A stretch of 50,203 nt of DNA from Deltaproteobacteria bacterium (GCA_016183145.1 JACPFE010000206.1:1-50203); one strand, 5' to 3'. Shown: positions 27,309 through 43,641, counted from the first letter of the stretch. A program made the numbers and translations. The notes: a model not told the origin generated them from the sequence alone.

Positions 27309-27707
27309 CTAGACGCGGTCGATCGCCTGTTTGATGGAGTCGAAGTTGAACATCGTGCTCCACGACGCCCCAGCACTTTGCAGGACGGGCGGCGAGTTGT
27401 AAATCGAATCGGTCTTGACGGCCACAAGCTTTTTCTTGAGTTCGACCGCCTTCCGGACTTCCCACGCCACCCAGCCGCTGCGGAAGCTTTCTTTGCCGAC
27501 GATGTACAGGAAGTAACTTGCGTCGCCTATACGCGCGGCGAGTTCCTGTTTGATAGCCGCCGCCCCAGGACTATCGACCGCGATACCGAAGGACTGGTCG
27601 TACGACGAGAAATCGAATTCTTTGTTGGCGTCCCACCCAAGCAGCCGATCCTTGGCAGCCTTGTCATTGTCATACTCGTAGCCGATGAACACTTTATTCG
27701 TAGCCAT
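27309..27707 (-). CDS. TIR-like domain protein (DUF1863/MTH538-type, ThsB-like)
   Basis: 133 aa with 'KVFIGYEYDNDK', 'ASYFLYIVGKESFRSGWVAWEVRKAVELKKKLVAVK', as I recall for stand-alone bacterial TIR-like proteins. I prefer the start 'MATNKVF' at 27707, because the ORF-track extension runs into copy D. Confidence 0.6.
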   Translation of the reverse strand: MATNKVFIGYEYDNDKAAKDRLLGWDANKEFDFSSYDQSFGIAVDSPGAAAIKQELAARIGDASYFLYIVGKESFRSGWVAWEVRKAVELKKKLVAVKTDSIYNSPPVLQSAGASWSTMFNFDSIKQAIDRV

Positions 27708-32789: not shown

Positions 32790-33944
32790 TCACGCTTCGG
32801 CTTTTTTCTTTCTCATTCCCCCGGCGACCATCTTGTACTCGAACAGCCGGCATTCGAGCGCGCCGTTGAAAAGCGGCGTGCGCTTGGAGGCGGCGAGGCG
32901 GATGAGCTTGGGCAAGCGCATATCGGCGCTGAGAATGTATGCGCGCCAGCCGGCGAAGTTTTTCTTTAGCGCGTCGCCGAGCTTCGGGTAGAATTCCGCG
33001 AGCTCCCGCTGCTCGCCGAGGCGCACGCCGTAGGGCGGGTTGGTGACGATGATCCCTTCCTTTGCCGGGGCGGAGATTTCCAGGACGTTTGCCTGCTTTA
33101 GGTTCACAGCTCTTTCCAAACCGGCCACCGCAAGATTGGCGCGCGCCGTCTTGAGCGCGTCGGCGGAAAGATCGCTGCCGTAAATCGCCAGCGGCGTCTT
33201 GGGCCTTTGCTGGGCCTGGCTTCGTTGCAACAGTTCGCGCCAACGACGCCCATCGAAATTCTTAAATTTCTCGAAAGCGAAATGGCGTCCCAGGCCGGGC
33301 GCGATATCGAGGGCCATCAACGCCGCTTCCAGTAAAATCGTCCCGCTGCCGCACATGGGGTCGAGCACGGGTATGCCCGGCTCCCAGCCAGCCAAGCGCA
33401 GGATGCCGGCGGCGAGATTTTCTCGTAGCGGCGCCTCGCCGGCGGCGATGCGCTTGCCGCGCTTGAACAGCGGTTCCCCGGTGGTGTCTAGGTAAAGGGT
33501 AAAGTCGCGATCCGTCAGATGGGCCTGGATCGAAATATTGGGTTGGTGGGTATCGACGCTGGGACGGCGACCGGTGAGGCGACGAATCTTATCGCAGACC
33601 GCGTCTTTGATTTTAAGCGTGACAAAATTGAGGCTCGTGAGCGGACTCTTGGTCGCGGTGACATCGACCCGGATGGTGCGCGCCGCATCAAACCAATCGG
33701 TCCACGGCAGCGCGTACGCACGGCGATAAATATCGTCCTCATCGCGATAACGATCGGTTGATACTTGCCAAAGAATCCGGCTCGCAACTCGGCTTGCCAG
33801 ATTGGCCCGGTAGCAGAGTAAGATATCGCCGCCGAAATGAACCCCGCCGCCTACCGCATGGACCTTTTCCGCGCCAAGTAACCGCAATTCCCCCGCCAGG
33901 ATTAACTCCAGGCCGCGCGGGCATGTAGCAAAGAATCGTTCCAT
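32790..33944 (-). CDS. THUMP-domain class I SAM-dependent RNA methyltransferase (RlmL/RlmK-like)
   Basis: 'FFATCPRGLELILAGEL', 'DPMCGSGTILLEAA' and 'TNPPYGVRLG'. Confidence 0.85.
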   Translation of the reverse strand: MERFFATCPRGLELILAGELRLLGAEKVHAVGGGVHFGGDILLCYRANLASRVASRILWQVSTDRYRDEDDIYRRAYALPWTDWFDAARTIRVDVTATKSPLTSLNFVTLKIKDAVCDKIRRLTGRRPSVDTHQPNISIQAHLTDRDFTLYLDTTGEPLFKRGKRIAAGEAPLRENLAAGILRLAGWEPGIPVLDPMCGSGTILLEAALMALDIAPGLGRHFAFEKFKNFDGRRWRELLQRSQAQQRPKTPLAIYGSDLSADALKTARANLAVAGLERAVNLKQANVLEISAPAKEGIIVTNPPYGVRLGEQRELAEFYPKLGDALKKNFAGWRAYILSADMRLPKLIRLAASKRTPLFNGALECRLFEYKMVAGGMRKKKAEA

Positions 33945-34141
33945 GATTCATTCCTATAACAGAGCCGGCGGGTTGGTGATAAGAGAAGGCCTGTAAAAAG
34001 ATCGGCGTGAGCGAACGCTCATGATTTCGCAGGTATTTCAGATTGGTTCTTGGTTTCTTTGGACCGGTCCCCTCCCTTGGCATCCGCCCCCCAATTCGCA
34101 TAGAATCACGGCAATTTAGTTAGCTAAAGAGGCTCGACTCC

Positions 34142-34327
34142 TTGCCGCGAATCTTCGACAATATCGACCAGCAACTTCTCCCCGCCCTTCGCGAGACGAT
34201 AGAGCTGTCTACCCGCTCCGATTTCTGCGTCGGCTATTTTAATCTCCGGGGATGGAAAGAGATCGATTCCTACAGTGAGCCCTGGCCGGGCGGGGACGGG
34301 CATTATTGCCGGCTGTTTGCCGGGTAG
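34142..34327 (+). pseudogene. N-terminal stub (~60 aa) of a PLD-nuclease/SNF2-helicase type protein
   Basis: 'RIFDNIDQQLLPALRETIELSTRSDFCVGYFNLRGWKEIDS...CRL' matches, from memory, the extreme N-terminus of ~1000-aa PLD-domain + SNF2 helicases. It stops before any HKD motif. Confidence 0.5.
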
Positions 34328-34374
34328 CATGGTGACTGTTAGGCTAGAAGAAGCTCACGCCTTTTCCAAAATAT

Positions 34375-34998
34375 ATGGTTAAAGAATATGAGATCTTGGA
34401 AATCAGGCCACCGCCTGGTCTCGAATCATTTTTTGATGGCAAACCTCCGACACTCTGGGGCTTGGGAGAACCGGCCATCTTAGAGCGCAAGCTTCTTGGG
34501 ATTATTTCTGCTCGACAGATTGATTCTGATCTGGCATTAAAAAGCTCACAGCTCTTGAAACAACTGGCGTTCTTGAAAGAGGTGTCCTTTATAAGCGGGT
34601 GGCATTCTCCCCTGGAGGAAGAAGCGCTCAATATCCTTTTAGCCCAAGAAGCCGCGATCGTTTTCTGTGTTCCTAAGAGCCTTAACCGGTTTGTTCCTTG
34701 CGCGGGAGTCAAGGATCGAGTGAGCCAGGGCGAAGCGCTATTGCTGACTCACTGCAGTCCAAGAGCGAAGCGAATCAGCAGAGATGCATCCCTTCGACGC
34801 AACGAATTGGTTGCAGTTTTGGCAGCGGCTCTGCTGGTTCTGTCCGCGCCGCAAGGGAGTGCCTCGTTGAAGCTCGCCAAATCAGCGCTGCGCTATGGAA
34901 AACCTGTATTGACGCCAGAGCACCGTATGAACAAGGAACTTCTTGGCTGCAACGCCTTACCTGCAACATTCGATAACATCCAAGCGGCCCTGCGATAA
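34375..34998 (+). CDS. DprA/Smf-like Rossmann-fold protein, paralog 1
   Basis: 207 aa with 'LLGIISARQ', 'ISGWHSPLEEEAL', 'IVFCVPKSL', 'ASLRRNELVAVLAAALLVLSAPQGSASLKLAK', laid out like the DprA core (G-rich loop / SG..GID / RNR). The stop is 5 nt before the next gene. Confidence 0.65.
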   Translation: MVKEYEILEIRPPPGLESFFDGKPPTLWGLGEPAILERKLLGIISARQIDSDLALKSSQLLKQLAFLKEVSFISGWHSPLEEEALNILLAQEAAIVFCVPKSLNRFVPCAGVKDRVSQGEALLLTHCSPRAKRISRDASLRRNELVAVLAAALLVLSAPQGSASLKLAKSALRYGKPVLTPEHRMNKELLGCNALPATFDNIQAALR

Positions 34999-35003
34999 GA
35001 ACT

Positions 35004-38000
35004 ATGGCAGCAGCAAAGACACTTGAAGACATCATCGCGGAGCAGGCGCCGATAGTTTGCGAGCAGATTGAAGCGGCCGTCGCGTTTGCCGAGTCGGAAG
35101 AAGATCTCCGGATCGAATGCGAGAAGGCTGTCGAGGTTTTTCGCAAAGAAGCGGATCTTCCGGAGCTGAAAGGTCACCATGAGGTAACGATCGGCAAAGG
35201 CAGAGCCGACTCGGTCTATGATTACGTTTTCATTGAATACAAAAAGCCCGGCCGGTTGAAGGAGTCGAACGATGCGCCGGGAAACCGCGAGGTCATCAAG
35301 CAGCTTCAAGAGCGTGCGAAGGCATTCAAGTCCGAGCTGAAACGAGATCCCAAGGAGCTTTTCGGAGTCGGCACCGACGGGAACTATTTCATCACCGGAA
35401 GGTATCGGAACGGCAGGTGGGAAATTAGCCCCGCCAAAACGCGGTCGGTTTATGTTGTAGAGGATTTTCTTCGAAAGTTATCGAGTCTCGGCGTTGCGGG
35501 CAAACCGTTCCTTGCCGACTACTTGGCCGGAGATTTCGGGGCCGAAAGTGAGCGCAAGCTTGCACGTGAGGGAATTGAGAAGCTCTACTGGCGAATCCGC
35601 GAAGTCGAAAAGAAGGCTGACGAATACCCTAAGGCCAAAGTTCTGTTCGAACAGTGGCGAATTCTCTTTGGCGAGGTCTGCGGGTACGACATCAAGACGC
35701 CGAGTAGCAAGATCAAACAGCTTGGGGAATTCTATGGTGTCAAAAAAGACCCGAATCCCGCTGCTTTGCTTTTCGCGGTTCACAGCTACTACGCGCTTTT
35801 CATGAAATTCTTGGCGGCAGAGATTGCCACGGTATCTGGATGCGTTGGTCTCGGCAAAACGATCGAGGCGGGAATGATCTGGCAAGCGTTGGCCCAGCGG
35901 GGGCAGGCAAAAAGGACCCTGATCATTTGTCCAGCCGGTCTAACGGTTCAATGGCAGGAGGAGATGCAGGATAAGTTCGGACAATTCTTTGAAATTTTCC
36001 AGCGTGATTTTCACACGATCAACCCGCGTATCTGGGACCTCAAGGCGTGCGCTATAGCGTCGTTAGATTGTCTAAAGCGCAAGGAGCACAAGGAAAAACT
36101 CTTCGAAAATCGCAAGTGGGATCTAATCATCTTTGACGAGGCCCATCGTTTGAGCGCGAGAGATTACGGAGAAACCAAAACGGAGAAGACTCAGAACTAC
36201 CGGCTCGCCGAGGATCTGAGAGACCACACGGACGCTTTACTCCTGGTAACTGCCACTCCGCACCAGGGCGACGCGACCCATTCACGCTTTCGCCATCTGC
36301 TTGGATTGCTGGATGACGAGATCGACTTCGGCGGGCTGGAGGACGGTCAGATCACGCTTTGGAACTACGCCGTCAGAGAACCGAGTGGCAACGGCTATCG
36401 GCCATACAAAGAGTACATTCTCCGCACGCCGAAGCTAAACGTGACGGATTCTCAAGGGAGAAAAATCTTCCGCGGACGCGACACCCATGCGCTGCGTTTT
36501 CCGATGTTTAAGGACGAGGCGGAGTTTTATAAGGAAGTCAGCCGCTATATCTCTGCCGGTTACCGCATGGTGGAGCATCTCAAGGATCGCAATAAGAAAC
36601 TAGCCATCGGGTTTGTCCTCACGGTTTTCCAGAAACTAGCTTCCAGCTCGACTCATGCAATCAAGGCGGCTCTTTATGGCCGGAAGATGCGCCTGCAAGA
36701 CAAATATCGGCGGCTGCCGGATTCCGTTGATCGCTTGGAGTCTCTTCTAGACGAAGCGGATGAGCGTTTCGAAGGCGAGACGGAAGAGAAGGCGGCCTGG
36801 AGACTCAAAACCGAGGAGGAATTTGTCAGAGACGAGCTTAAGGATCTCGAACGGCTGATCGCGATGCCGGTGAAACAGGATCGGAAGCTCGTTGAGTTAA
36901 AGCAACTGATTAAGCAGGTTTTCAGCGAAAGCGAAAAGGGCGAGAAAGAAAAAATCCTGATCTTTACCGAGTACAGAAAAACTCAGGACCATTTGGTGGA
37001 GGAGTTGGAGAAAGCGTCCGGAAAAGGATCGGTTGTAATCATCAACGGCGACATGAAATTGGACCAGAGGAAAACCAGCGTTCAGCGATTCCGAGATAAT
37101 GACAACGTCCGCTTTATGGTCAGCACCGAGTCGGGAGGCGAGGGGATCAACCTGCAATTCTGCCACGTTCTGGTTAATTACGACCTGCCTTGGAATCCCA
37201 TGAGAATCGAGCAACGGGTGGGTCGGATTTACCGCTTCGGTCAAACCAAGAGGGTTCAGATCTACAACTTTAGAGGCAAGGAAACCGTGGAGGATAAAAT
37301 TTACGGCTTTCTGGAGCAAAAGATTGATATCGCGGCGAAGGCTTTGGCGAAGGTCACTGGAGAAGACCCGGAAGACATCAAGACCACGATGCTCGGTCAA
37401 TTAGAGAGCGAGGTCGATTACAACTCGATCTACAAACGCGCCATCGTCGAGCAGAACATCGAGCAATCCAAAGAAGAGATCGAAGAAGGGGTCAAAAAGG
37501 CGCAGCTCGCCTATGAGATAGCCACGAACAGCTTGTTTAGAGATGTTTCGGGTTATTCCTTCGCTAATTACGAAAGGGAACTGAAAGCAGACATCGATCT
37601 TGAGGCGTTAAGGGAGCTGACGGAGCGGTTTCTGCAACACCATCACCGCCAGGTGCAAAAGAAAGACGGGCTCGTCGAGTTCCTCACGCCGGAAGACCTA
37701 CAAGGACCCGGCATTGACGAGCGATTTACCAAAGTGACCTTTGACCGCAAAGCAGCCATAGAGAACCCGGACTTAACATTTTTTGCGCTTGGCCACCCAT
37801 TTGTGGATAGCATGCTCAAAGCTTGCGGGGACGTGAGCTTTGGCGGTTATTGCACTCGACGATATGTCAAAAACCCGAAAGTAAGCCCGCGTTACGGGTA
37901 CACGTTTAATTTCATTGTGCGACAACGAATTCACAGGGACGACCACGAAGAGTTTTTGTTTGCGCTGCATCCTATATTCGTCGGGGATGATGGTACGATT

Positions 38001-38192
38001 GACGACATCGCAGCGAGGGTGTGTTTGGAATCTTATGGCGATTCGCTCAACAGAGAAATTCAGATCCATCTCGGACCCGACGGCGCCTTTGAAATCGCCA
38101 AAGGTCGCCTTCAGAAGCAAGTTAAAACTATCTGGGATTGGGAAGAGGACGTAACCTTACTGAATCTCGCTTTAGTCGCCGTTGGGTCGTGA
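35004..38192 (+). CDS. PD-(D/E)xK nuclease-like N-module fused to SNF2-family helicase core
   Basis: Residues 1-~278: 'GKGRADSVYDYVFIEYKKPG' (D...ExK) and 'LLFAVHSYYALFMKFLAAEI', which resemble the N-terminal part of type IIG/MmeI-YeeA-like R-M enzymes. From residue 282: 'GLGKTIEAG', 'IICPAGLTVQWQEEM', 'DEAHRLS', 'LLVTATPHQG', 'GGEGINLQ' and 'DLPWNPMRIEQRVGRIYRFGQ'. Confidence 0.85.
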   Translation: MAAAKTLEDIIAEQAPIVCEQIEAAVAFAESEEDLRIECEKAVEVFRKEADLPELKGHHEVTIGKGRADSVYDYVFIEYKKPGRLKESNDAPGNREVIKQLQERAKAFKSELKRDPKELFGVGTDGNYFITGRYRNGRWEISPAKTRSVYVVEDFLRKLSSLGVAGKPFLADYLAGDFGAESERKLAREGIEKLYWRIREVEKKADEYPKAKVLFEQWRILFGEVCGYDIKTPSSKIKQLGEFYGVKKDPNPAALLFAVHSYYALFMKFLAAEIATVSGCVGLGKTIEAGMIWQALAQRGQAKRTLIICPAGLTVQWQEEMQDKFGQFFEIFQRDFHTINPRIWDLKACAIASLDCLKRKEHKEKLFENRKWDLIIFDEAHRLSARDYGETKTEKTQNYRLAEDLRDHTDALLLVTATPHQGDATHSRFRHLLGLLDDEIDFGGLEDGQITLWNYAVREPSGNGYRPYKEYILRTPKLNVTDSQGRKIFRGRDTHALRFPMFKDEAEFYKEVSRYISAGYRMVEHLKDRNKKLAIGFVLTVFQKLASSSTHAIKAALYGRKMRLQDKYRRLPDSVDRLESLLDEADERFEGETEEKAAWRLKTEEEFVRDELKDLERLIAMPVKQDRKLVELKQLIKQVFSESEKGEKEKILIFTEYRKTQDHLVEELEKASGKGSVVIINGDMKLDQRKTSVQRFRDNDNVRFMVSTESGGEGINLQFCHVLVNYDLPWNPMRIEQRVGRIYRFGQTKRVQIYNFRGKETVEDKIYGFLEQKIDIAAKALAKVTGEDPEDIKTTMLGQLESEVDYNSIYKRAIVEQNIEQSKEEIEEGVKKAQLAYEIATNSLFRDVSGYSFANYERELKADIDLEALRELTERFLQHHHRQVQKKDGLVEFLTPEDLQGPGIDERFTKVTFDRKAAIENPDLTFFALGHPFVDSMLKACGDVSFGGYCTRRYVKNPKVSPRYGYTFNFIVRQRIHRDDHEEFLFALHPIFVGDDGTIDDIAARVCLESYGDSLNREIQIHLGPDGAFEIAKGRLQKQVKTIWDWEEDVTLLNLALVAVGS

Positions 38193-38377
38193 GGGGCCGG
38201 TGCCGGGCCGGTGCCTGACTTGCCTTGATTGCCTTACCTAACGATGCGCAAGAATCTACTTGTTCCAGCCTTTCAAATCGTTTCAGCCAAGCAATTTGAG
38301 GGATCCGTCCTATGGCGGACAAGCCGTTCCAAACGTTGAAGAGTTGCGGGAGTGATCCGGCGTCTGGCTCTTATTTC

Positions 38378-38614
38378 CTAACTCTTCTGCCTCAGCTCTA
38401 AATCAAAGCGAAGAACATGCTCGCCGATTCGATGGCCGATGAACCTGATCGCTGCATTTTCACTCGCTTCGTTTAAGAAATTCCGGTTATGACTGGGGTC
38501 TTGCATAGGAATCGATTCCGCTGAAAAAGTCCAATTCCAAGAATCGGGGAAAAATATTTCGCTCACAGAAGCTCTGTAACGCACGATCGGAGCTTGGTTA
38601 CTGATTTTCTTCAT
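38378..38614 (-). CDS. hypothetical protein (78 aa), only minus-strand ORF in the island
   Basis: ORF only. It could be a gene fragment. Confidence 0.25.
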   Translation of the reverse strand: MKKISNQAPIVRYRASVSEIFFPDSWNWTFSAESIPMQDPSHNRNFLNEASENAAIRFIGHRIGEHVLRFDLELRQKS

Positions 38615-38774
38615 CCCGAGTTTTCGTGAATAGGGGGTTTTTCAGCGGAATCACAATCTCATCAATCTGTGGTGAGTTCTCGGAGGAAGCGGATGGACCG
38701 GCTCAAGTCCTGCGCGCCACAAAACTTTGACCTGCGCCGCGGCGCTGGAGAGAGTTTCCGTGTCTCACCATCAC

Positions 38775-38794
38775 GTTTTGAGAATTCTCAAAAC
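38775..38794. repeat. perfect 20-bp palindrome GTTTTGAGAATTCTCAAAAC
   Basis: Read directly. It equals its own reverse complement. Confidence 0.9.
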
Positions 38795-38822
38795 AACAAT
38801 GTGTCGCCCCGATCGATGCTGA

Positions 38823-38854
38823 TTGCGTAGTTGCGCAATTGCGCAACTACGCAA
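38823..38854. repeat. perfect 32-bp palindrome TTGCGTAGTTGCGCAATTGCGCAACTACGCAA
   Basis: Read directly. Built from four TTGCG(T/C)A(G/A)-type octamers, two forward and two inverted. Confidence 0.9.
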
Positions 38855-38966
38855 CTATCCCCGGTCGGCGGAATCCTGGACGATTTTGCACGCCGCGCAA
38901 GTGTTTGATAGTGTCACCCGCAACGAGGACGCCACTAACGAAGAAAGCCGGCAGAAGGAAGGGTAA

Positions 38967-39080
38967 ATCAAAAGGGTGCTGGCGGCGCACTACGGATTCA
39001 CGGACGAGGAGTTGGACTTCATCATCAACTACGACATCAAGTACCGGATGGGACAGGACGTGGAAGCTGAAGACGAATGA
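38967..39080 (+). pseudogene. C-terminal tail remnant of a DNA methyltransferase / type IIG R-M gene
   Basis: Open for only 37 codons: 'IKRVLAAHYGFTDEELDFIINYDIKYRMGQDVEAEDE*'. As I recall, the 'YG(F/L)T(D/E)EE(L/I)' tail is characteristic of these methyltransferases. There is no upstream body. Confidence 0.5.
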
Positions 39081-39179
39081 AATGCGCGGACTCCACGATC
39101 CGTAGGTTGATTTCGGGATTAGCTCGCCATGGGGCGATGTGTTATTGATGGGTCTCCTGAGCGTTAGAGGGAGAGATTC

Positions 39180-40421
39180 GTGTTAAAGAAATTGATCGTT
39201 AAGGGTTTTAAGTCGCTGGAGGATGTCGCTGTCGAATTTCCCCGAATGGCGGTGCTTTTTGGTCCCAATGCCGCGGGGAAAAGTAATCTTCTGGACGCGA
39301 TCCAAGCGCTGTCTCGCATCGGAACAAGCCGGACCCTGTCCGATGCCCTATCGGAACCCATCAGGGGATACCCGATAGAGGCGTTTGCTTTTCCGGCAGG
39401 TGGTCTAGCTGCACTGCTCAGTCAAACGAGGGCAAGCTTCTCTCTTGAAACGGTTTTGGATGTGGGAATAGAACATTTTCTTTACAACTATCGTTTTTCG
39501 GTTGAGATCCAGCCAGGTTCCGGCAGCGTAAGCGTGCAGGACGAATATCTCGTTACGCTGGGCAAGCGAGGCGAACCAAAAGGAAATCCGTCAATAGAAA
39601 GGGTCGAAGATCAGCTCCGAATTCGTCGCAAGAGCAAACCAGCTAATCCCCGGCGGGAAAATGTGGGCCAAAATTATGCGATCCTGTCAGACCCACGATG
39701 GAGTGGAGTTGAATACCGTGCCATCGAACGCTGTCGTAACGAGCTTTCAGGATGGCGTACTTATTACCTCGATCCGCGCGTGGCCATGCGTTCGGCTCGT
39801 CCACCTTCAGATGTGAGGGACATAGGAGTTTTGGGAGAAGATATCGCACCATTCTTATACCGTCTGCGTGCAGAACAGCCGAAGCGTTTTGATGCCGTCA
39901 AACGGACACTCCGTTCCTTGATCCCGAGCGTGGAGGACCTGACAGTTGATCTGGACAAGAAGCGCGGCACACTGGACATTCTGGTTCGGCAGGGCGGAAA
40001 GGAATTCTCATCACGCATAGTCTCTGAAGGGACCCTTCGCGTGCTCGCGCTCTGCGCGCTAACGGTGAACCCTTGGAGCGGTTCACTTCTCGCCTTCGAA
40101 GAGCCAGAGAACGGAGTTCACCCGCGACGTCTTGAGCTAATCGTGCAGCTCCTATCGTCCCTCGCAGTTGACTCTGGCCGCCAAATCGTTGTTACGACTC
40201 ACTCGCCTCTGTTCTGCGACGCGGTTCTGAAACTTGCGAAGCAGCAACCGAAGGAAATCGCTTTGCTCAGAGTTCGCCAGGGCGGTCAAGGCACGGAGAT
40301 AGTGCCGTTTAGCGTTAGTGCCCCCCTCTTTAAGGACCTGGAGATCGCCGAGGCACTAACAACTGGGACAGAAGACGGACTCTTCGAAAGCCTGATCCTT
40401 CGGGGAATGATTGATGAGTAG
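39180..40421 (+). CDS. AAA/ABC-type ATPase (AAA_15/AAA_21-like, OLD/PARIS-AriA-like)
   Basis: 'FGPNAAGKSNLLDAIQAL' Walker A, 'SEGTLRVLAL' signature-like and 'LLAFEEPENGVHP' Walker B. 413 aa. Confidence 0.85.
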   Translation: MLKKLIVKGFKSLEDVAVEFPRMAVLFGPNAAGKSNLLDAIQALSRIGTSRTLSDALSEPIRGYPIEAFAFPAGGLAALLSQTRASFSLETVLDVGIEHFLYNYRFSVEIQPGSGSVSVQDEYLVTLGKRGEPKGNPSIERVEDQLRIRRKSKPANPRRENVGQNYAILSDPRWSGVEYRAIERCRNELSGWRTYYLDPRVAMRSARPPSDVRDIGVLGEDIAPFLYRLRAEQPKRFDAVKRTLRSLIPSVEDLTVDLDKKRGTLDILVRQGGKEFSSRIVSEGTLRVLALCALTVNPWSGSLLAFEEPENGVHPRRLELIVQLLSSLAVDSGRQIVVTTHSPLFCDAVLKLAKQQPKEIALLRVRQGGQGTEIVPFSVSAPLFKDLEIAEALTTGTEDGLFESLILRGMIDE

Positions 40422-41013
40422 CCCGCTGACTGTGGATCTTTTTGCCGAAGATCGCGCTCATGAAGAGTTTCTGCGAGCTATGCTTAACAGAATCTCCGAC
40501 GAACAAGAGAGATACCTCACCGTTCGCGTGCGCTCGGCGAGGGGAGGCCACCCGCGGGTTCTTGAAGAATTGTCGTTGTATCAAAAGAGCGTCTTGAAAG
40601 CTCCGGAGAGTTTGTCGATGCCGGACCTGCTTTTCATTGCTATCGATGCCAACTGTAAGCGTTGGAATAGAGCGAGAAGGGATATTCAAGGAACAATCCA
40701 GTCCCAATTCGCGGCGCGCGCAATTGTGGCTTGTCCGGACCCCCATATCGAACGTTGGTATCTCGCAGACCCAGACTCCTTTGCGCAGGTTGTTGGAGTC
40801 CGCCCCAAGGTTGGAAAGAGAAAATGCGAAAGAGATCGATACAAGGCGATTCTTTCGAAAGCCATTGTCGATGCCGGGCATCCAGCAACGCTAGGAGGAA
40901 TCGAGTTCGCTCGGGAGTTAGTTGCCGCTATGGATCTCTATCGGGCCGGAAAAGCCGAAGGGAGCCTCAAACATTTTCTTGACGAAACCATTGCTCGCGT
41001 TAAGACCCTTTGA
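40411..41013 (+). CDS. Toprim-like / DUF4276-like partner protein
   Basis: Overlaps the ATPase stop by 11 nt. 'VDLFAEDRAHEEFLRAML', 'LLFIAIDAN' and 'PHIERWYLADPDSF' resemble the vEG.tE / D.D / iE.W.laD pattern of DUF4276/OLD-Toprim proteins (from memory). The second Asp of DxD is Asn here. Confidence 0.5.
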   Translation: MMSSPLTVDLFAEDRAHEEFLRAMLNRISDEQERYLTVRVRSARGGHPRVLEELSLYQKSVLKAPESLSMPDLLFIAIDANCKRWNRARRDIQGTIQSQFAARAIVACPDPHIERWYLADPDSFAQVVGVRPKVGKRKCERDRYKAILSKAIVDAGHPATLGGIEFARELVAAMDLYRAGKAEGSLKHFLDETIARVKTL

Positions 41014-41068
41014 AAACCCAAACCAGCAGCAGTCGCGCGGAACGGAAGAACTTCCTGCACAAGAACGA

Positions 41069-41656
41069 ATGGGAATAAGTCCAATTCAGGTCGCGACACT
41101 GACGTCATCGCAAGCTCGTTGGCCTCGCGGGCTTGCTAATAGGCTACGTCGTGATGTTCCTTCTCGACTCTGGGCCATCGGAAGCCCTGAAATTCTCGAT
41201 GAGAAGAAGGTCGGCCTGTTTTGCTCGGTTCGTTGTCCAGGTGATGCCATTCTCGACGCTTACGACAGCGCCCGGAAGCTACGTGATGAAGGCGTGACTG
41301 TCGTTAGTGGCTTTCACTCTCCCGTAGAAAAGGAATGCCTGCGAATTCTGCTGCGAGGGAAACAACCAATCATCATGTGCTTGGCACGGGCGTTAGAAAA
41401 GATTCGCCTGCCGGCTGACTGGCGCAGCGCTGTGGAAGCCGGCCGCTTATTGCTTATTTCACCGTTCGAGAAGCGGCCACGGCGTCCGACAAAGGAGGCC
41501 TCCCAGCGTCGCAACGAAATCGTCGCCGCGCTGTCGGATGAGGTTCTAATCATACACGCCGAATCAGGCGGCAGCGTAGCGCGAATCTCGCAGATGGTTG
41601 AACATTGGAAAGTGCCCAAACTCAATCTACCGAACAACGGAGGTAAGTCCTCTTAA
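41069..41656 (+). CDS. DprA/Smf-like Rossmann-fold protein, paralog 2
   Basis: 195 aa from 'MGISPIQ', with 'VGLFCSVRCPGD', 'VSGFHSPVEKECL', 'IIMCLARAL' and 'ASQRRNEIVAALSDEVLIIHAESGGSVARISQ'. Collinear with paralog 1. Confidence 0.65.
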   Translation: MGISPIQVATLTSSQARWPRGLANRLRRDVPSRLWAIGSPEILDEKKVGLFCSVRCPGDAILDAYDSARKLRDEGVTVVSGFHSPVEKECLRILLRGKQPIIMCLARALEKIRLPADWRSAVEAGRLLLISPFEKRPRRPTKEASQRRNEIVAALSDEVLIIHAESGGSVARISQMVEHWKVPKLNLPNNGGKSS

Positions 41657-41712
41657 GCTGCCGCGTTGCCTGGGGTGAAGGAAACCAAATTCATGCTCAG
41701 CGAAACTAATCA

Positions 41713-41760
41713 TGTGGCGGCCGCGCGATACGGGTTTACGGACGAGGAGTTGGACTTTCC
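41713..41760 (+). pseudogene. second, shorter methyltransferase-tail remnant
   Basis: 'VAAARYGFTDEELDF' then divergence. The DNA tacgggtttacggacgaggagttggacttt matches 38991-39020 at 27 of 30 positions. Confidence 0.4.
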
Positions 41761-42261
41761 TTTGTCGAAGCTCAGGACGGGCACCCATCCTACGGCTACA
41801 AACTCTGTCAAAGTCTCACCTGCCCACTCGGCAACGCGAGTCATAGATTCACGCTCGGGGCGTCGATCGAGAGTCGGCCAAGCTCGCTGCGATTTTAATC
41901 CGCTCTCTTACTTTCACCGACGCGACGTGTTAAGGTTAACACCATGATTAAAGAAGAAAAGGCAACAAGATCCGAAATTTTTCACCATCTCTCGCAGGTT
42001 TACGACGTTTCTCGCATCAACCCGGTACCACGACTGGGCCCGCAGCGGTAGTTTCTCTCTAAGTCTCCCAACAACTATCTCGCCTTTTGGCCAATCGCCG
42101 CAGTGAAGCGGCGTGAATCCTAGGGTGCTTGTTAGTTTGAAAAAGGGCCGCACCTTAAGGGCTTTGCCCGAGGGTTTAAGCGATTTTCGCTTCCAGCCCG
42201 ACGGTATGGCCCGTTTTTTTTCGACCCCATAGCCGGTGGTCACGCAGAAAATCCACCAGGA

Positions 42262-43641
42262 TTGGGGTGGGTACTATGTGTAAGAGTCATAAAAATAGAA
42301 AGCAGGTCCGTGTCTAACCGTAAAAAAGGCTTCAATTTACTCATCCGCGCTCTGGGTTCAAGAAATTACCGCCTATATTTCTTTGGACAGGCGGTGTCCT
42401 TGATCGGCACCTGGATGCAACAGATAGCCATGAGATGGCTGGTGTATCGCTTGACCAAGTCCGAGTTATTGTTGGGCGTAGTGGGATTTGCCAGCGATAT
42501 CCCGGTATTTTTTCTGGTGCCTTTTGCCGGCGTGCTCGCCGATAAATTCAAACGCCAGCGCATCTTGGCGATAACGCAAGGGCTGGCGGCGCTGCAAGCA
42601 TTTATCCTGGCGGTTTTGGTCATCACGGACCAAGCGGCGGTTTGGCATGTCGTGGTGCTCGGCGCGTTATTGGGCGTCATCAACGCCTTCGACATACCCG
42701 CCCGCCAAGCCTTCTTGGTGGAGGTGGTCGAGAACAAGGAGGACTTAGGCAATGCCATCGCGCTGAACTCGTTCATCTTCAATGGCGCATTGCTGATCGG
42801 CCCCGTCATGGCGGGTGTTCTGATCGCCTTTTTCGGCGAAGGACTCTGCTTGATTCTGAACGGTGTAAGCTACCTTGCCCTTATAGGCGCGCTCCTTCTT
42901 ATGAAAATTCCAGAGAGAAAAACGACTTCAGGAAATATTCAATTAGGGCGCGGGATCCTCGAAGGCGCAACCTACGCGTTTCGCTCAGTGCCCATCAGAT
43001 CGATTCTACTGCTGGTCGCCCTGGTGAGTTTTATGGGGGTTTCCTACATGCTGCTCATGCCGGTATTCGCCGAAGATGTTTTGCACGGCGGTCCACAAGC
43101 ATTTGGCTACCTCATGTCGGCAACCGGCATTGGTGCTCTGGCTGGGGCCGTTTTCCTGGCCTCGCGAAGGAATATTTTAGGGTTAGGAAAAGTGATTGTT
43201 ATCTCGGGTATAATGTACGGCATTGGACTTTTTGCCTTGTCGTTGTCGCATCATCTAATCTTGTCTTTGGTCATTGCCGTGGCGGTTGGTTTTTCCTTGA
43301 TGATGCAGATGGCTTCCAGCAACACGATCCTGCAGACAATCGTCGATGACCGGAAACGCGGTCGCGTGATCAGCCTCTTTGTGATGGCGCGCCGCGGCGT
43401 CGAATCGTTCGGCAGTTTAGTGGCCGGCGTAGTGGCACATCGGTTCGGCACGCCGGACACGTTGATGATCGGTGGCATCGTTTGCTTGCTCGCCTCGGTA
43501 GCCTTCGCCACGAAATTATCGATGATACGAGAAACCAGCCGTGCCTTTTATAAGGATATGAAGGATGCGAAATCAGACGCTAAACCCGTTCCGGTAGTTA
43601 GAGTAATTAATGAGCTGCCGGTGGGCGCGCCAAATCCATAG
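42262..43641 (+). CDS. MFS transporter (MFS_3/EntS-like)
   Basis: About 12 predicted TM segments, 'NYRLYFFGQAVSLIGTWMQ' and 'GVLADKFKRQRIL'. The start is uncertain (the GTG at 42310 is also plausible). Confidence 0.85.
   Translation: MGWVLCVRVIKIESRSVSNRKKGFNLLIRALGSRNYRLYFFGQAVSLIGTWMQQIAMRWLVYRLTKSELLLGVVGFASDIPVFFLVPFAGVLADKFKRQRILAITQGLAALQAFILAVLVITDQAAVWHVVVLGALLGVINAFDIPARQAFLVEVVENKEDLGNAIALNSFIFNGALLIGPVMAGVLIAFFGEGLCLILNGVSYLALIGALLLMKIPERKTTSGNIQLGRGILEGATYAFRSVPIRSILLLVALVSFMGVSYMLLMPVFAEDVLHGGPQAFGYLMSATGIGALAGAVFLASRRNILGLGKVIVISGIMYGIGLFALSLSHHLILSLVIAVAVGFSLMMQMASSNTILQTIVDDRKRGRVISLFVMARRGVESFGSLVAGVVAHRFGTPDTLMIGGIVCLLASVAFATKLSMIRETSRAFYKDMKDAKSDAKPVPVVRVINELPVGAPNP

Follow-up and report, generated by a model that had tools for sequence, protein, structure and literature searches.

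Do clustered plus-strand genes with the parts of several anti-phage loci form one undescribed defence system, or a composite of several? The question is raised by positions 34142-41760 of a 50,203-nt contig from a Deltaproteobacteria bacterium (GCA_016183145.1, JACPFE010000206.1:1-50203; this whole stretch is referred to as the window). An earlier note had described this block as a defence-island-like accessory region with a gene combination that could not be assigned to a named system, arranged in two modules with one DprA-like gene each. An open reading frame (ORF) call on the window returned the listed ORFs, and the defence-related, accessory nature of the block is supported by our analysis. 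Neither one coherent gene combination nor two modules in parallel is supported; instead, the block is very probably a defence hotspot occupied by a partly dead mosaic, formed by recombination between two related systems of the restriction-modification-like kind, here called system A and system B.

The largest ORF of the block, previously read as a 1062-aa PD-(D/E)xK::SNF2 protein, is a deletion chimera and not a natural architecture. A search over 5.8 billion proteins found 5986 relatives, with a coverage of the ORF of 82% at most. The top match is the 772-aa NCBI annotation of that very gene (P0001), and the next-best matches, helicases of 911-918 aa, align solely to residues 281-1062. Identity to the 911-aa protein P0002 starts exactly at V281, corresponding to nt 35844, and Pfam reports helicase domains alone, from residue ~275 on. 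The segment at 35844..38192 (+) is a system-A SNF2 helicase without its first 129 residues, with 93% identity to P0002 aa 130-910 and 97% identity to aa 130-906 of the helicase in a related locus, L008 (GCA_040961615.1, JBFONE010001226), which we found as the neighbourhood of a protein 91% identical to DprA-like 1. This segment opens at motif I (VGLGKT), in front of which intact helicases carry an N-terminus of 129 residues of their own. Residues 1-280 (35004..35843, +) are what remains, at the 5′ end, of the type IIG restriction/methylase gene of system A; they share 92% identity with aa 1-277 of the L008 enzyme and match the PADLOC profile REase_MTase_IIG over aa 18-287 (6.8e-40). The remnant retains a D...EYK motif at residues ~68-80, and its methylase and target-recognition parts are gone. 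The predicted PD-(D/E)xK fold of this N-domain is assigned only from that motif and from REBASE-type family homology.

Two deletion junctions lie within the ORF, at 35830/35831 (152 nt) and at 35843/35844 (2710 nt; both by blastn). Sister contigs from three independent assemblies (L003, GCA_016176915.1; L004, GCA_016184285.1; L005, Logan SRR12113429 assembly) are 99.8% identical to the window and have 152 extra bases between window positions 35830 and 35831 (L003 9806-9957); in these contigs the type IIG remnant and the helicase are separate ORFs, called as proteins of 341 or 250 aa plus 772 aa. Blastn against L008 aligned window 34143-35831 with L008 2286-3974 and window 35844-38193 with L008 6849-9198, and L008 4139-6848 is missing from both the window and L003. 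The 2710-nt junction is common to the window and the sister contigs and is out of frame in the latter, and the 152-nt loss, located 13 nt upstream of it, was found in this contig alone. As 2710 + 152 = 2862 = 3 x 954, the ORF of the window reads through in frame. Overall, system A lost its type IIG enzyme from ~residue 278 on, including the methylase and recognition parts, and helicase residues 1-129. In addition, L004 has a separate 83-nt deletion within the type IIG remnant, and there are further small indels near 38460-38560. Distinct indels (152, 83 and ~55 nt) in near-identical genomes are the pattern of DNA that is no longer under selection, and automatic annotation of the ORF as a 1062-aa “nuclease-helicase” would mislead.

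The L008 locus, which shares 85-94% nucleotide identity with the window, contains system A in intact form (L008 2285-9197), with the gene order DprA-like (207 aa), type IIG restriction/methylase (1092 aa) and SNF2 helicase (911 aa). A 61-aa stub precedes these three genes, and the helicase is followed by a short ORF with a methylase tail, a 413-aa AAA_21 ATPase, a DUF4276 gene and a second DprA-like gene. The L008 type IIG enzyme has N6_Mtase, MmeI_Mtase and Eco57I domains and a full-length match to PADLOC REase_MTase_IIG (3.5e-299). In the window, the first gene of system A is DprA-like 1 (34375..34998, +; 207 aa, PF02481 2.5e-16), followed after the previously reported gap of 5 nt by the chimeric ORF. 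A type IIG gene lies directly 3′ of DprA-like 1 in L006, L007, L008, L018, L019 and L021, and a DprA-like gene is present in all close relatives of system A. The trio also occurs without the other parts of the block, in L006 as well as in L007, where the type IIG gene is split. In L008, L009 and L018, system A is preceded by the same system-B helicase stub as in the window. More distant relatives of the system-A helicase are found with a methylase and no DprA-like gene (L176) or in decayed loci (L174, L175).

System A (L006 4366-11021) and system B (L010 1370-10588) were found at the same chromosomal site in two metagenome-assembled genomes (MAGs) of Binatia, with lplA on one side and dcd, His_Phos_1 and surA on the other, and the two systems behave as alternative occupants of one defence hotspot. 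The recognition part of the type IIG enzyme (aa ~475-955) shows only 54% identity between loci whose N-parts are 93% identical (L007 12061-13485 and L006 4995-8250 compared with L008 3147-6425), which suggests swapping of target-recognition domains in system-A type IIG enzymes. Furthermore, dS (synonymous divergence) between the window and L008 is uneven along the locus, the extremes being 0.13 for DprA-like 1 and 0.96 for the type IIG N-part; this spread reveals a mosaic history and, together with the 54%/93% contrast, points to frequent recombination. For the same pair of sequences, the ratio of nonsynonymous to synonymous divergence (dN/dS) is no indicator of decay in the remnants, as the two had largely diverged before the deletion took place.

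The genes of system B are, in order, a PLD-SNF2 helicase (1128 aa), a type IIG-like methylase (~1105 aa), a variable embedded cassette and a DprA-like gene (~195 aa). In our reference locus L010 (GCA_037024495.1, JBAIGM010000026) and in L011, the helicase of 1128 aa and a methylase of 1110 aa are followed by an AAA_21 ATPase, a DUF4276 gene and a DprA-like gene of 195 aa, and the L010 methylase matches PADLOC PDLC03628 from end to end (E = 0). The same two first genes and the same last gene are present in L013, with AIPR, MJECL33, DarG-C-like and other genes between them. Several pieces of the block are derived from genes of this kind. The PLD/SNF2 helicase stub recognized earlier (34142..34327, +; 61 codons, then a stop) is 88.5% identical to residues 1-61 of the intact 1128-aa L010 helicase and 55-87% identical to 20 other PLD-SNF2 helicases, and it lacks the HKD catalytic region. 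Both presumed methylase-tail remnants also proved to be such: tail 1 (38967..39081, +; VLAAHYGFTDEELDFIINYDIKYRMGQDVEAEDE*), the last 37 codons and stop of a system-B methylase, shares 89% identity with residues 1074-1110 of its L010 counterpart, and tail 2 (41681..41806, +), the diverged last 45 codons of another methylase of the system-B type, is 42% identical over aa 1066-1110 (tblastn, E 3e-5). The two tails are joined by a 44-nt direct repeat with 84% identity, and neither a methylase gene nor a Pfam methylase domain is left in the block.

About 1 kb between the helicase and tail 1 had been described as mostly non-coding with two palindromes. The palindromes are there, but the stretch also holds the 3′ end (~17 codons) and downstream flank of a third gene of the DprA-like 2 family (38193..38423, +). 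By blastn, this segment has 98.7% identity with L014 1561-1639 and 82% with L013 10564-10795, where the matched DNA is the end of a DprA-like gene plus the following DNA, and it encodes CLTCLDCLT*, as at the C-terminus of P0349. Window ~38831-38949 likewise matches DprA-like 3′ ends or flanks (L013, L014, L063). Because the stub, the tails and the DprA-like ends match system-B genes, the block contains the remains of at least three system-B units, and system A sits at the former place of the helicase and methylase of the first B unit. What survives of system B is thus the 61-codon helicase stub, the 37-codon tail, an ATPase and DUF4276 pair, DprA-like 2, tail 2 and the end of the third DprA-like gene.

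These observations can be combined into a sequence of events. System A took the place of the helicase and methylase genes in a system-B unit, of which the first 61 and the last 37 codons, respectively, were left, with the embedded gene pair and the DprA-like gene of B staying in place; system A then lost 2710 nt (methylase, target recognition and helicase N-terminus), and this contig finally lost 152 nt more, which joined the remnants in frame. In the window, the ATPase and DUF4276 pair and the two DprA-like genes alone look functional, the block being otherwise fossil.

Two other explanations of the block have to be weighed against a mosaic. It could be one intact, novel multi-gene system of two parallel modules with the 1062-aa protein as its effector, as the single-strand arrangement of the ORFs, their tight spacing (the 5-nt gap and an 11-nt overlap), the uninterrupted large ORF and a deletion sum divisible by three might indicate. 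However, no homolog covers the fusion, three other assemblies have it out of frame, the helicase lacks the 129 residues before motif I and the type IIG enzyme its methylase and recognition parts, and an intact ancestor-like locus exists, so that we regard this explanation as highly improbable. The mosaic could instead be an artefact of metagenome assembly, the window being a MAG contig with a 152-nt deletion unique to it. Such a chimeric contig is hardly credible, as independent assemblies (GCA_016176915.1, GCA_016184285.1 and Logan SRR12113429) repeat the gene order together with the 2710-nt junction, the stub and both tails, and the intact form of the locus is found in GCA_040961615.1. A recombined mosaic of systems A and B remains the explanation that we prefer.

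The ATPase and DUF4276 genes, with the predicted overlap of 11 nt, correspond to a described candidate system, HEC-01 (Hma-embedded candidate 01). HEC-01 consists of an ABC ATPase and a TOPRIM partner and was described as nested in Hma systems (Payne et al., bioRxiv 10.1101/2024.01.29.577857). The 413-aa ABC-type ATPase of the window (39180..40421, +; AAA_21 5.1e-32) matches the PADLOC HEC-01A profile PDLC04184 (1.4e-56) and nine other HEC-01A profiles. The 200-aa DUF4276 (Toprim-like) protein (40411..41013, +; Pfam 8.5e-9) scores 36.4 bits against a Pfam cut-off of 30.2 and is matched weakly by HEC-01B profiles, with 5.9e-5 as the best value. Both parts of the HEC-01 definition, the ATPase and an adjacent same-strand TOPRIM-like partner, are thus present. 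Compared with L008, the ATPase is identical in length and has a dN/dS of 0.13, the value for the DUF4276 gene is 0.08, and both genes appear intact.

Both DprA-like proteins consist of a Rossmann-fold domain only (195-207 aa) and are 31% identical to each other. DprA-like 2 (41069..41656, +; 195 aa, PF02481 3.5e-16), the last gene of system B, is identical to a 195-aa database protein (P0241), and its relatives lie 3′ of a PLD-SNF2 and methylase pair in L010, L013 and at least 20 other loci. Conserved motifs are SG(F/W)HSP(V/L)E(K/E)E and RRN. Modelling of DprA-like 1 with AlphaFold2 (pLDDT 90.8, 28-sequence alignment) and a Foldseek comparison, which the earlier note had proposed, gave DprA Rossmann domains as the best matches (TM 0.76-0.80), namely those of H. 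pylori (5mll, 0.76), R. palustris (3maj, 0.80) and S. pneumoniae (3uqz, 0.79), as well as ShosA (8zva, 0.71); LOG and Moco-carrier proteins were far weaker fold matches. The PADLOC profiles for PsyrA and ShosA partly match both proteins. With TIGR00732 (dprA), they score 59.5 and 46.8 bits, below the equivalog cut-off of 191. Solitary distant DprA-like relatives were also noticed in conserved non-defence contexts such as aldolase/cupin/UbiD, a BamB-like PQQ propeller and uvrA (L020, L022, L023 at ~10000, L030, L088, L012, L061), which suggests a chromosomal, possibly housekeeping, branch of the short DprA-like family.

The gene neighbourhoods of homologs, whose analysis had likewise been proposed, tie the DprA-like genes to methylase/helicase loci in many bacterial phyla, so that they belong with these systems and not with the ATPase/Toprim pair; the possibility that they have no conserved linkage to helicase or ATPase genes elsewhere is not borne out, as linkage to helicase and methylase genes extends across phyla. 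A census anchored on the DprA-like genes, with one genome per species, comprised 79 loci from Binatia/“Deltaproteobacteria”, Verrucomicrobiota, Acidobacteriota (Bryobacterales), Chloroflexota, Poribacteria, Lentisphaerae, Planctomycetota, Omnitrophota, Cyanobacteria and other phyla. Among the relatives of DprA-like 2 with at least 8 kb of upstream sequence, a system-B methylase gene was present on the same strand in 23/42, a PLD helicase gene in 24/42 and both in 20/42. The distance from the methylase stop to the DprA-like start ranged from -70 to 7229 nt, and several loci in which the two genes abut or overlap represent a minimal three-gene form; L026, L031 and L067 are examples of a minimal system B. 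A second census, anchored on the methylase, comprised 80 loci from metagenomes. Here, a PLD helicase was encoded upstream of the methylase in 45 of 48 loci. A DprA-like protein was encoded downstream of it in 22 of the 37 loci that have 3 kb or more of sequence (13 of 21 for 6 kb or more); these DprA-like counts are lower bounds, at least one gene having been missed by the scan. Methylase loci without a DprA-like gene hold ABC-3C CTD9 plus MC5, PLDc_2, TIR_2, DUF3644 or an integrase at that place, and no conserved fourth large gene of system B was seen across 57 loci. The core is therefore the methylase and SNF2 pair, with the DprA-like gene as a frequent third member (~60% in system B), and the space between methylase and DprA-like gene is a slot for other cassettes, of which HEC-01, AIPR, ABC-3C, TIR and PLD are reported here. 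The linkage of the DprA-like, methylase and helicase genes is conserved, and the triad is unnamed. The slot gives an example of nested defence cassettes that are swapped between conserved anchors.

Remnants like those of the window recur in other loci. A second methylase tail lies inside the slot of L013 (6769-6915), L029 and L065 resemble the window in having a tail 3′ of the DprA-like gene, and orphan tails occur 5′ of DprA-like genes in L052, L063, L074 and L075. The orphan tails of L013, L052, L063, L065, L074 and L075 are conserved at the DNA level, with matches of 39-68 nt and 75-90% identity to tail 2, and may be the homology used in cassette exchange. Furthermore, three loci contain ORFs in which a helicase N-terminus is fused to the last 44-50 codons of the methylase (L054 7116-7592, L055 7814-9049, L064 5515-7065). 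All three fusions are in frame (chance ~1/27), which hints that translation through the tail matters for downstream expression. Independent large deletions have removed the methylase and helicase of system A elsewhere and spared, as in the window, DprA-like 1 with the N-terminal 256-330 residues of the type IIG protein: in L019 (10592-11413), type IIG residue 256 is joined to helicase residue 891, and in L018 (10630-11616) the type IIG protein ends at residue 329. In L177, the relative of DprA-like 1 is solitary. These loci thus often decay by loss of the methylase and the motor, with the small DprA-like gene being kept.

How would an intact system work? The methylase would mark a short asymmetric site on host DNA, unmarked sites would recruit the helicase, and the nuclease that cuts would be the N-domain of the type IIG protein (system A) or the helicase's PLD domain (system B). 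The same logic has been demonstrated by experiment for the MtsC/MtsD pair of MANTIS. The DprA-like protein may bind single-stranded DNA (ssDNA) and/or RecA or the methylase, limiting or repairing damage to host DNA. It could then be an antitoxin-like safeguard, analogous to ShosA or to the DprA of H. pylori, a role that we consider possible but doubtful. To neutralise its toxin, ShosA has to bind both ssDNA and RecA (PMC11961720, PMC12961424), and in H. pylori direct contact with DprA inhibits restriction enzymes and stimulates methylases (PMC3597690). The survival of the DprA-like genes after loss of nuclease and helicase fits a protective component.

The main alternative to a safeguard is a sensor role, with the DprA-like protein as a sensor or effector partner that detects, for example, phage ssDNA or replication intermediates and turns on the helicase-nuclease, or as a nucleotide-binding sensor of the SLOG type. 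The SLOG/DprA superfamily includes ligand sensors such as ThsA, and weaker fold matches to LOG and Moco-carrier proteins were obtained; the best fold matches by far, however, are ssDNA-binding DprA domains, and the order of loss in the window, L018, L019 and L177, where the DprA-like gene outlives nuclease and helicase, is the one expected of a protective component. A sensor is therefore rather unlikely. Still less plausible is an assignment of the DprA-like genes to the HEC-01 cassette or their interpretation as unrelated neighbours, which could be read from the contiguity of ATPase, DUF4276 and DprA-like genes in the window, L008 and L010 and from the many solitary relatives. At least 13 loci have the DprA-like gene behind the methylase at a distance of -70 to 26 nt, without an intervening ATPase. 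The place of the ATPase pair is taken by other genes in L013, and an ATPase of this type was detected downstream of the methylase in only 2 of the 80 methylase-anchored loci. Moreover, DprA-like 1 stands at the opposite end of system A, where there is no ATPase.

We thus interpret the block as a mosaic of two such systems, and the following points speak against parts of this interpretation. The order of events was reconstructed, and the present arrangement would equally result from other orders. An assembly error could account for the 152-nt deletion, which was seen in no other contig, and the in-frame fusion could in principle have acquired a function. About 45% of the DprA-like 2 relatives are solitary, beside housekeeping genes (uvrA, relA, cobN, BamB-like), and ~40% of system-B loci have no DprA-like gene, which is hence not obligatory. 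The suggested role of the DprA-like proteins rests on analogy with proteins that are 18-22% identical in structural alignment. Finally, HEC-01 gave no phage protection in the only published test (bioRxiv 10.1101/2024.01.29.577857).

The surroundings of the block agree with the earlier description. The left flank is an RlmL-like gene (THUMP/UPF0020; 32790-33944, minus strand), and an MFS gene begins at 42262 on the right. The block is indeed AT-rich, if only slightly, with a GC content of 52.6% compared with 56.2% for the remaining window, which ranks it 10th lowest among 171 sliding windows of the same size. Both perfect palindromes were found, at 38774-38793 (20 nt) and 38826-38853 (28 nt). 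They are not repeated elsewhere in the window, and an interpretation as a repetitive extragenic palindromic (REP)-type element was rejected because of this single occurrence. The sister contig L004 (12992-13022) runs collinearly with the window until the 28-nt palindrome ends, at its final base, and continues with unrelated DNA containing a PIN gene and an amidohydrolase gene; genes for the ATPase, the DUF4276 protein and DprA-like 2 are absent from it. The palindrome may mark a recombination breakpoint. Rfam gave zero matches over 33900-42400, and the small ORFs of both “non-coding” stretches had zero matches in Pfam. One of the ORFs in the “non-coding” stretch, of 78 aa (38378-38614, -), is kept in L004 (called there with 92 aa) and has no Pfam match. 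A solitary 132-aa ThsB-like TIR gene (PF08937) was noticed 6.5 kb to the left of the block at window ~27309-27707 (-), a position inferred from the annotation of the sister contig L003 (1285-1683); its neighbours are housekeeping genes (ftsH, dnaJ), and no ThsA was seen nearby.

The stated mismatch of the block with DISARM, BREX, Gabija, PARIS and Septu is supported, and none of the proteins attains the curated cut-off of a named NCBIfam family, DrmD, PglX, MAD2/3, DpdE and dprA being among those compared. PARIS was rejected since the AriB (DUF4435) partner is lacking; the partner is a DUF4276 protein, and the AriA match (1.2e-30) is weaker than the match to HEC-01A. Class 1 DISARM resembles the systems described here in its SNF2 helicase (DrmD), large N6 methylase (DrmMI) and PLD protein (DrmC). 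However, DrmD scores are 318.6 bits for the window and 341.6 bits for L008 against a cut-off of 610, and no DUF1998 (DrmA/DrmB) protein is encoded in the block. For BREX, there are no PglZ or BrxC matches in the block, and the PglX profiles give 36-61 bits on the intact methylases against cut-offs of 400-900. MADS, with its kinase and type-I-like genes, was rejected as well (MAD3 132 bits, cut-off 420; no other component, MAD6-8 being mandatory in the published model), and so was Hma, as the HmaA profile (7e-89) is surpassed by the BrxHI match and HmaB (DUF1156) and HmaC (DUF499) are lacking in the block. A search of PDB sequences with the methylases and the helicase returned distant generic matches alone.

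Some described systems share part of this organization. System B resembles the BREX-related type 2 system MANTIS/Gao_RL, for which the MtsC/MtsD logic was shown experimentally (bioRxiv 10.64898/2026.09.23.753747, 10.1101/2025.10.09.681413), in combining a ~1100-aa N6-adenine methylase with a PLD (HKD)-Swi2/Snf2 helicase. It differs in that DUF499 (BrxC-like, MtsA) and DUF3870/DUF3780 (MtsB) genes are absent from the window and from the 57 system-B loci; MANTIS/BREX-related systems were rejected as an assignment since no DUF499-type gene is present in the block or in these loci. DprA-like genes, which accompany ~60% of system-B loci, are mentioned in neither the MANTIS nor the BREX-related paper. 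The HEC-01 pair of the window, an ABC-type ATPase gene followed by DUF4276, shares with the published cassettes its nesting between methylase and helicase system genes. Its host system is not Hma, however, and the cassette lies between the type IIG-like methylase (tail) and a DprA-like gene.

The intact methylases of systems A and B match the type IIG profiles PDLC03630 and PDLC03628 of PADLOC from end to end. The nuclease, N6-methylase and target-recognition domains that define a type IIG polypeptide are united in L008 and L010, whereas in the window aa 1-280 and two C-terminal tails are left, and no N6_Mtase or Eco57I domain. Classical type IIG enzymes act alone; those of systems A and B nearly always come with an SNF2 helicase and, in many loci, with a DprA-like protein. 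Competence DprA consists of SAM and Rossmann (and winged-helix) domains; the proteins of the window are Rossmann domains alone, with a good fold match. ShosTA and PsyrTA share features with the present loci, namely the ShosA/PsyrA profile matches, the structural match to ShosA and the fact that PsyrA also partners a helicase. In contrast, the DprA-like proteins described here are partnered with a methylase and an SNF2 helicase and not with PRTase or RecQ, genes for which were not found adjoining the DprA-like genes, and they lack the SAM domain of ShosA. No name for the combination of DprA-like, type IIG and SNF2 genes was found in PADLOC, NCBIfam or the literature searched. We tentatively propose, as possible rather than probable, that the large N6-adenine (type IIG-like) methylase, an SNF2 helicase with a nuclease either in the same protein or as a partner, and a DprA-like protein of ~200 aa as integral safeguard or regulator constitute a widespread unnamed family of methylation-based defence systems, in which the methylase tail and the DprA-like gene bracket a slot for the capture and exchange of cassettes. 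A role of DprA-like proteins as partners of restriction-like systems, if true, would link the effects of DprA on restriction and methylation in H. pylori and the antitoxin ShosA to the methylase/helicase defences of bacteria.

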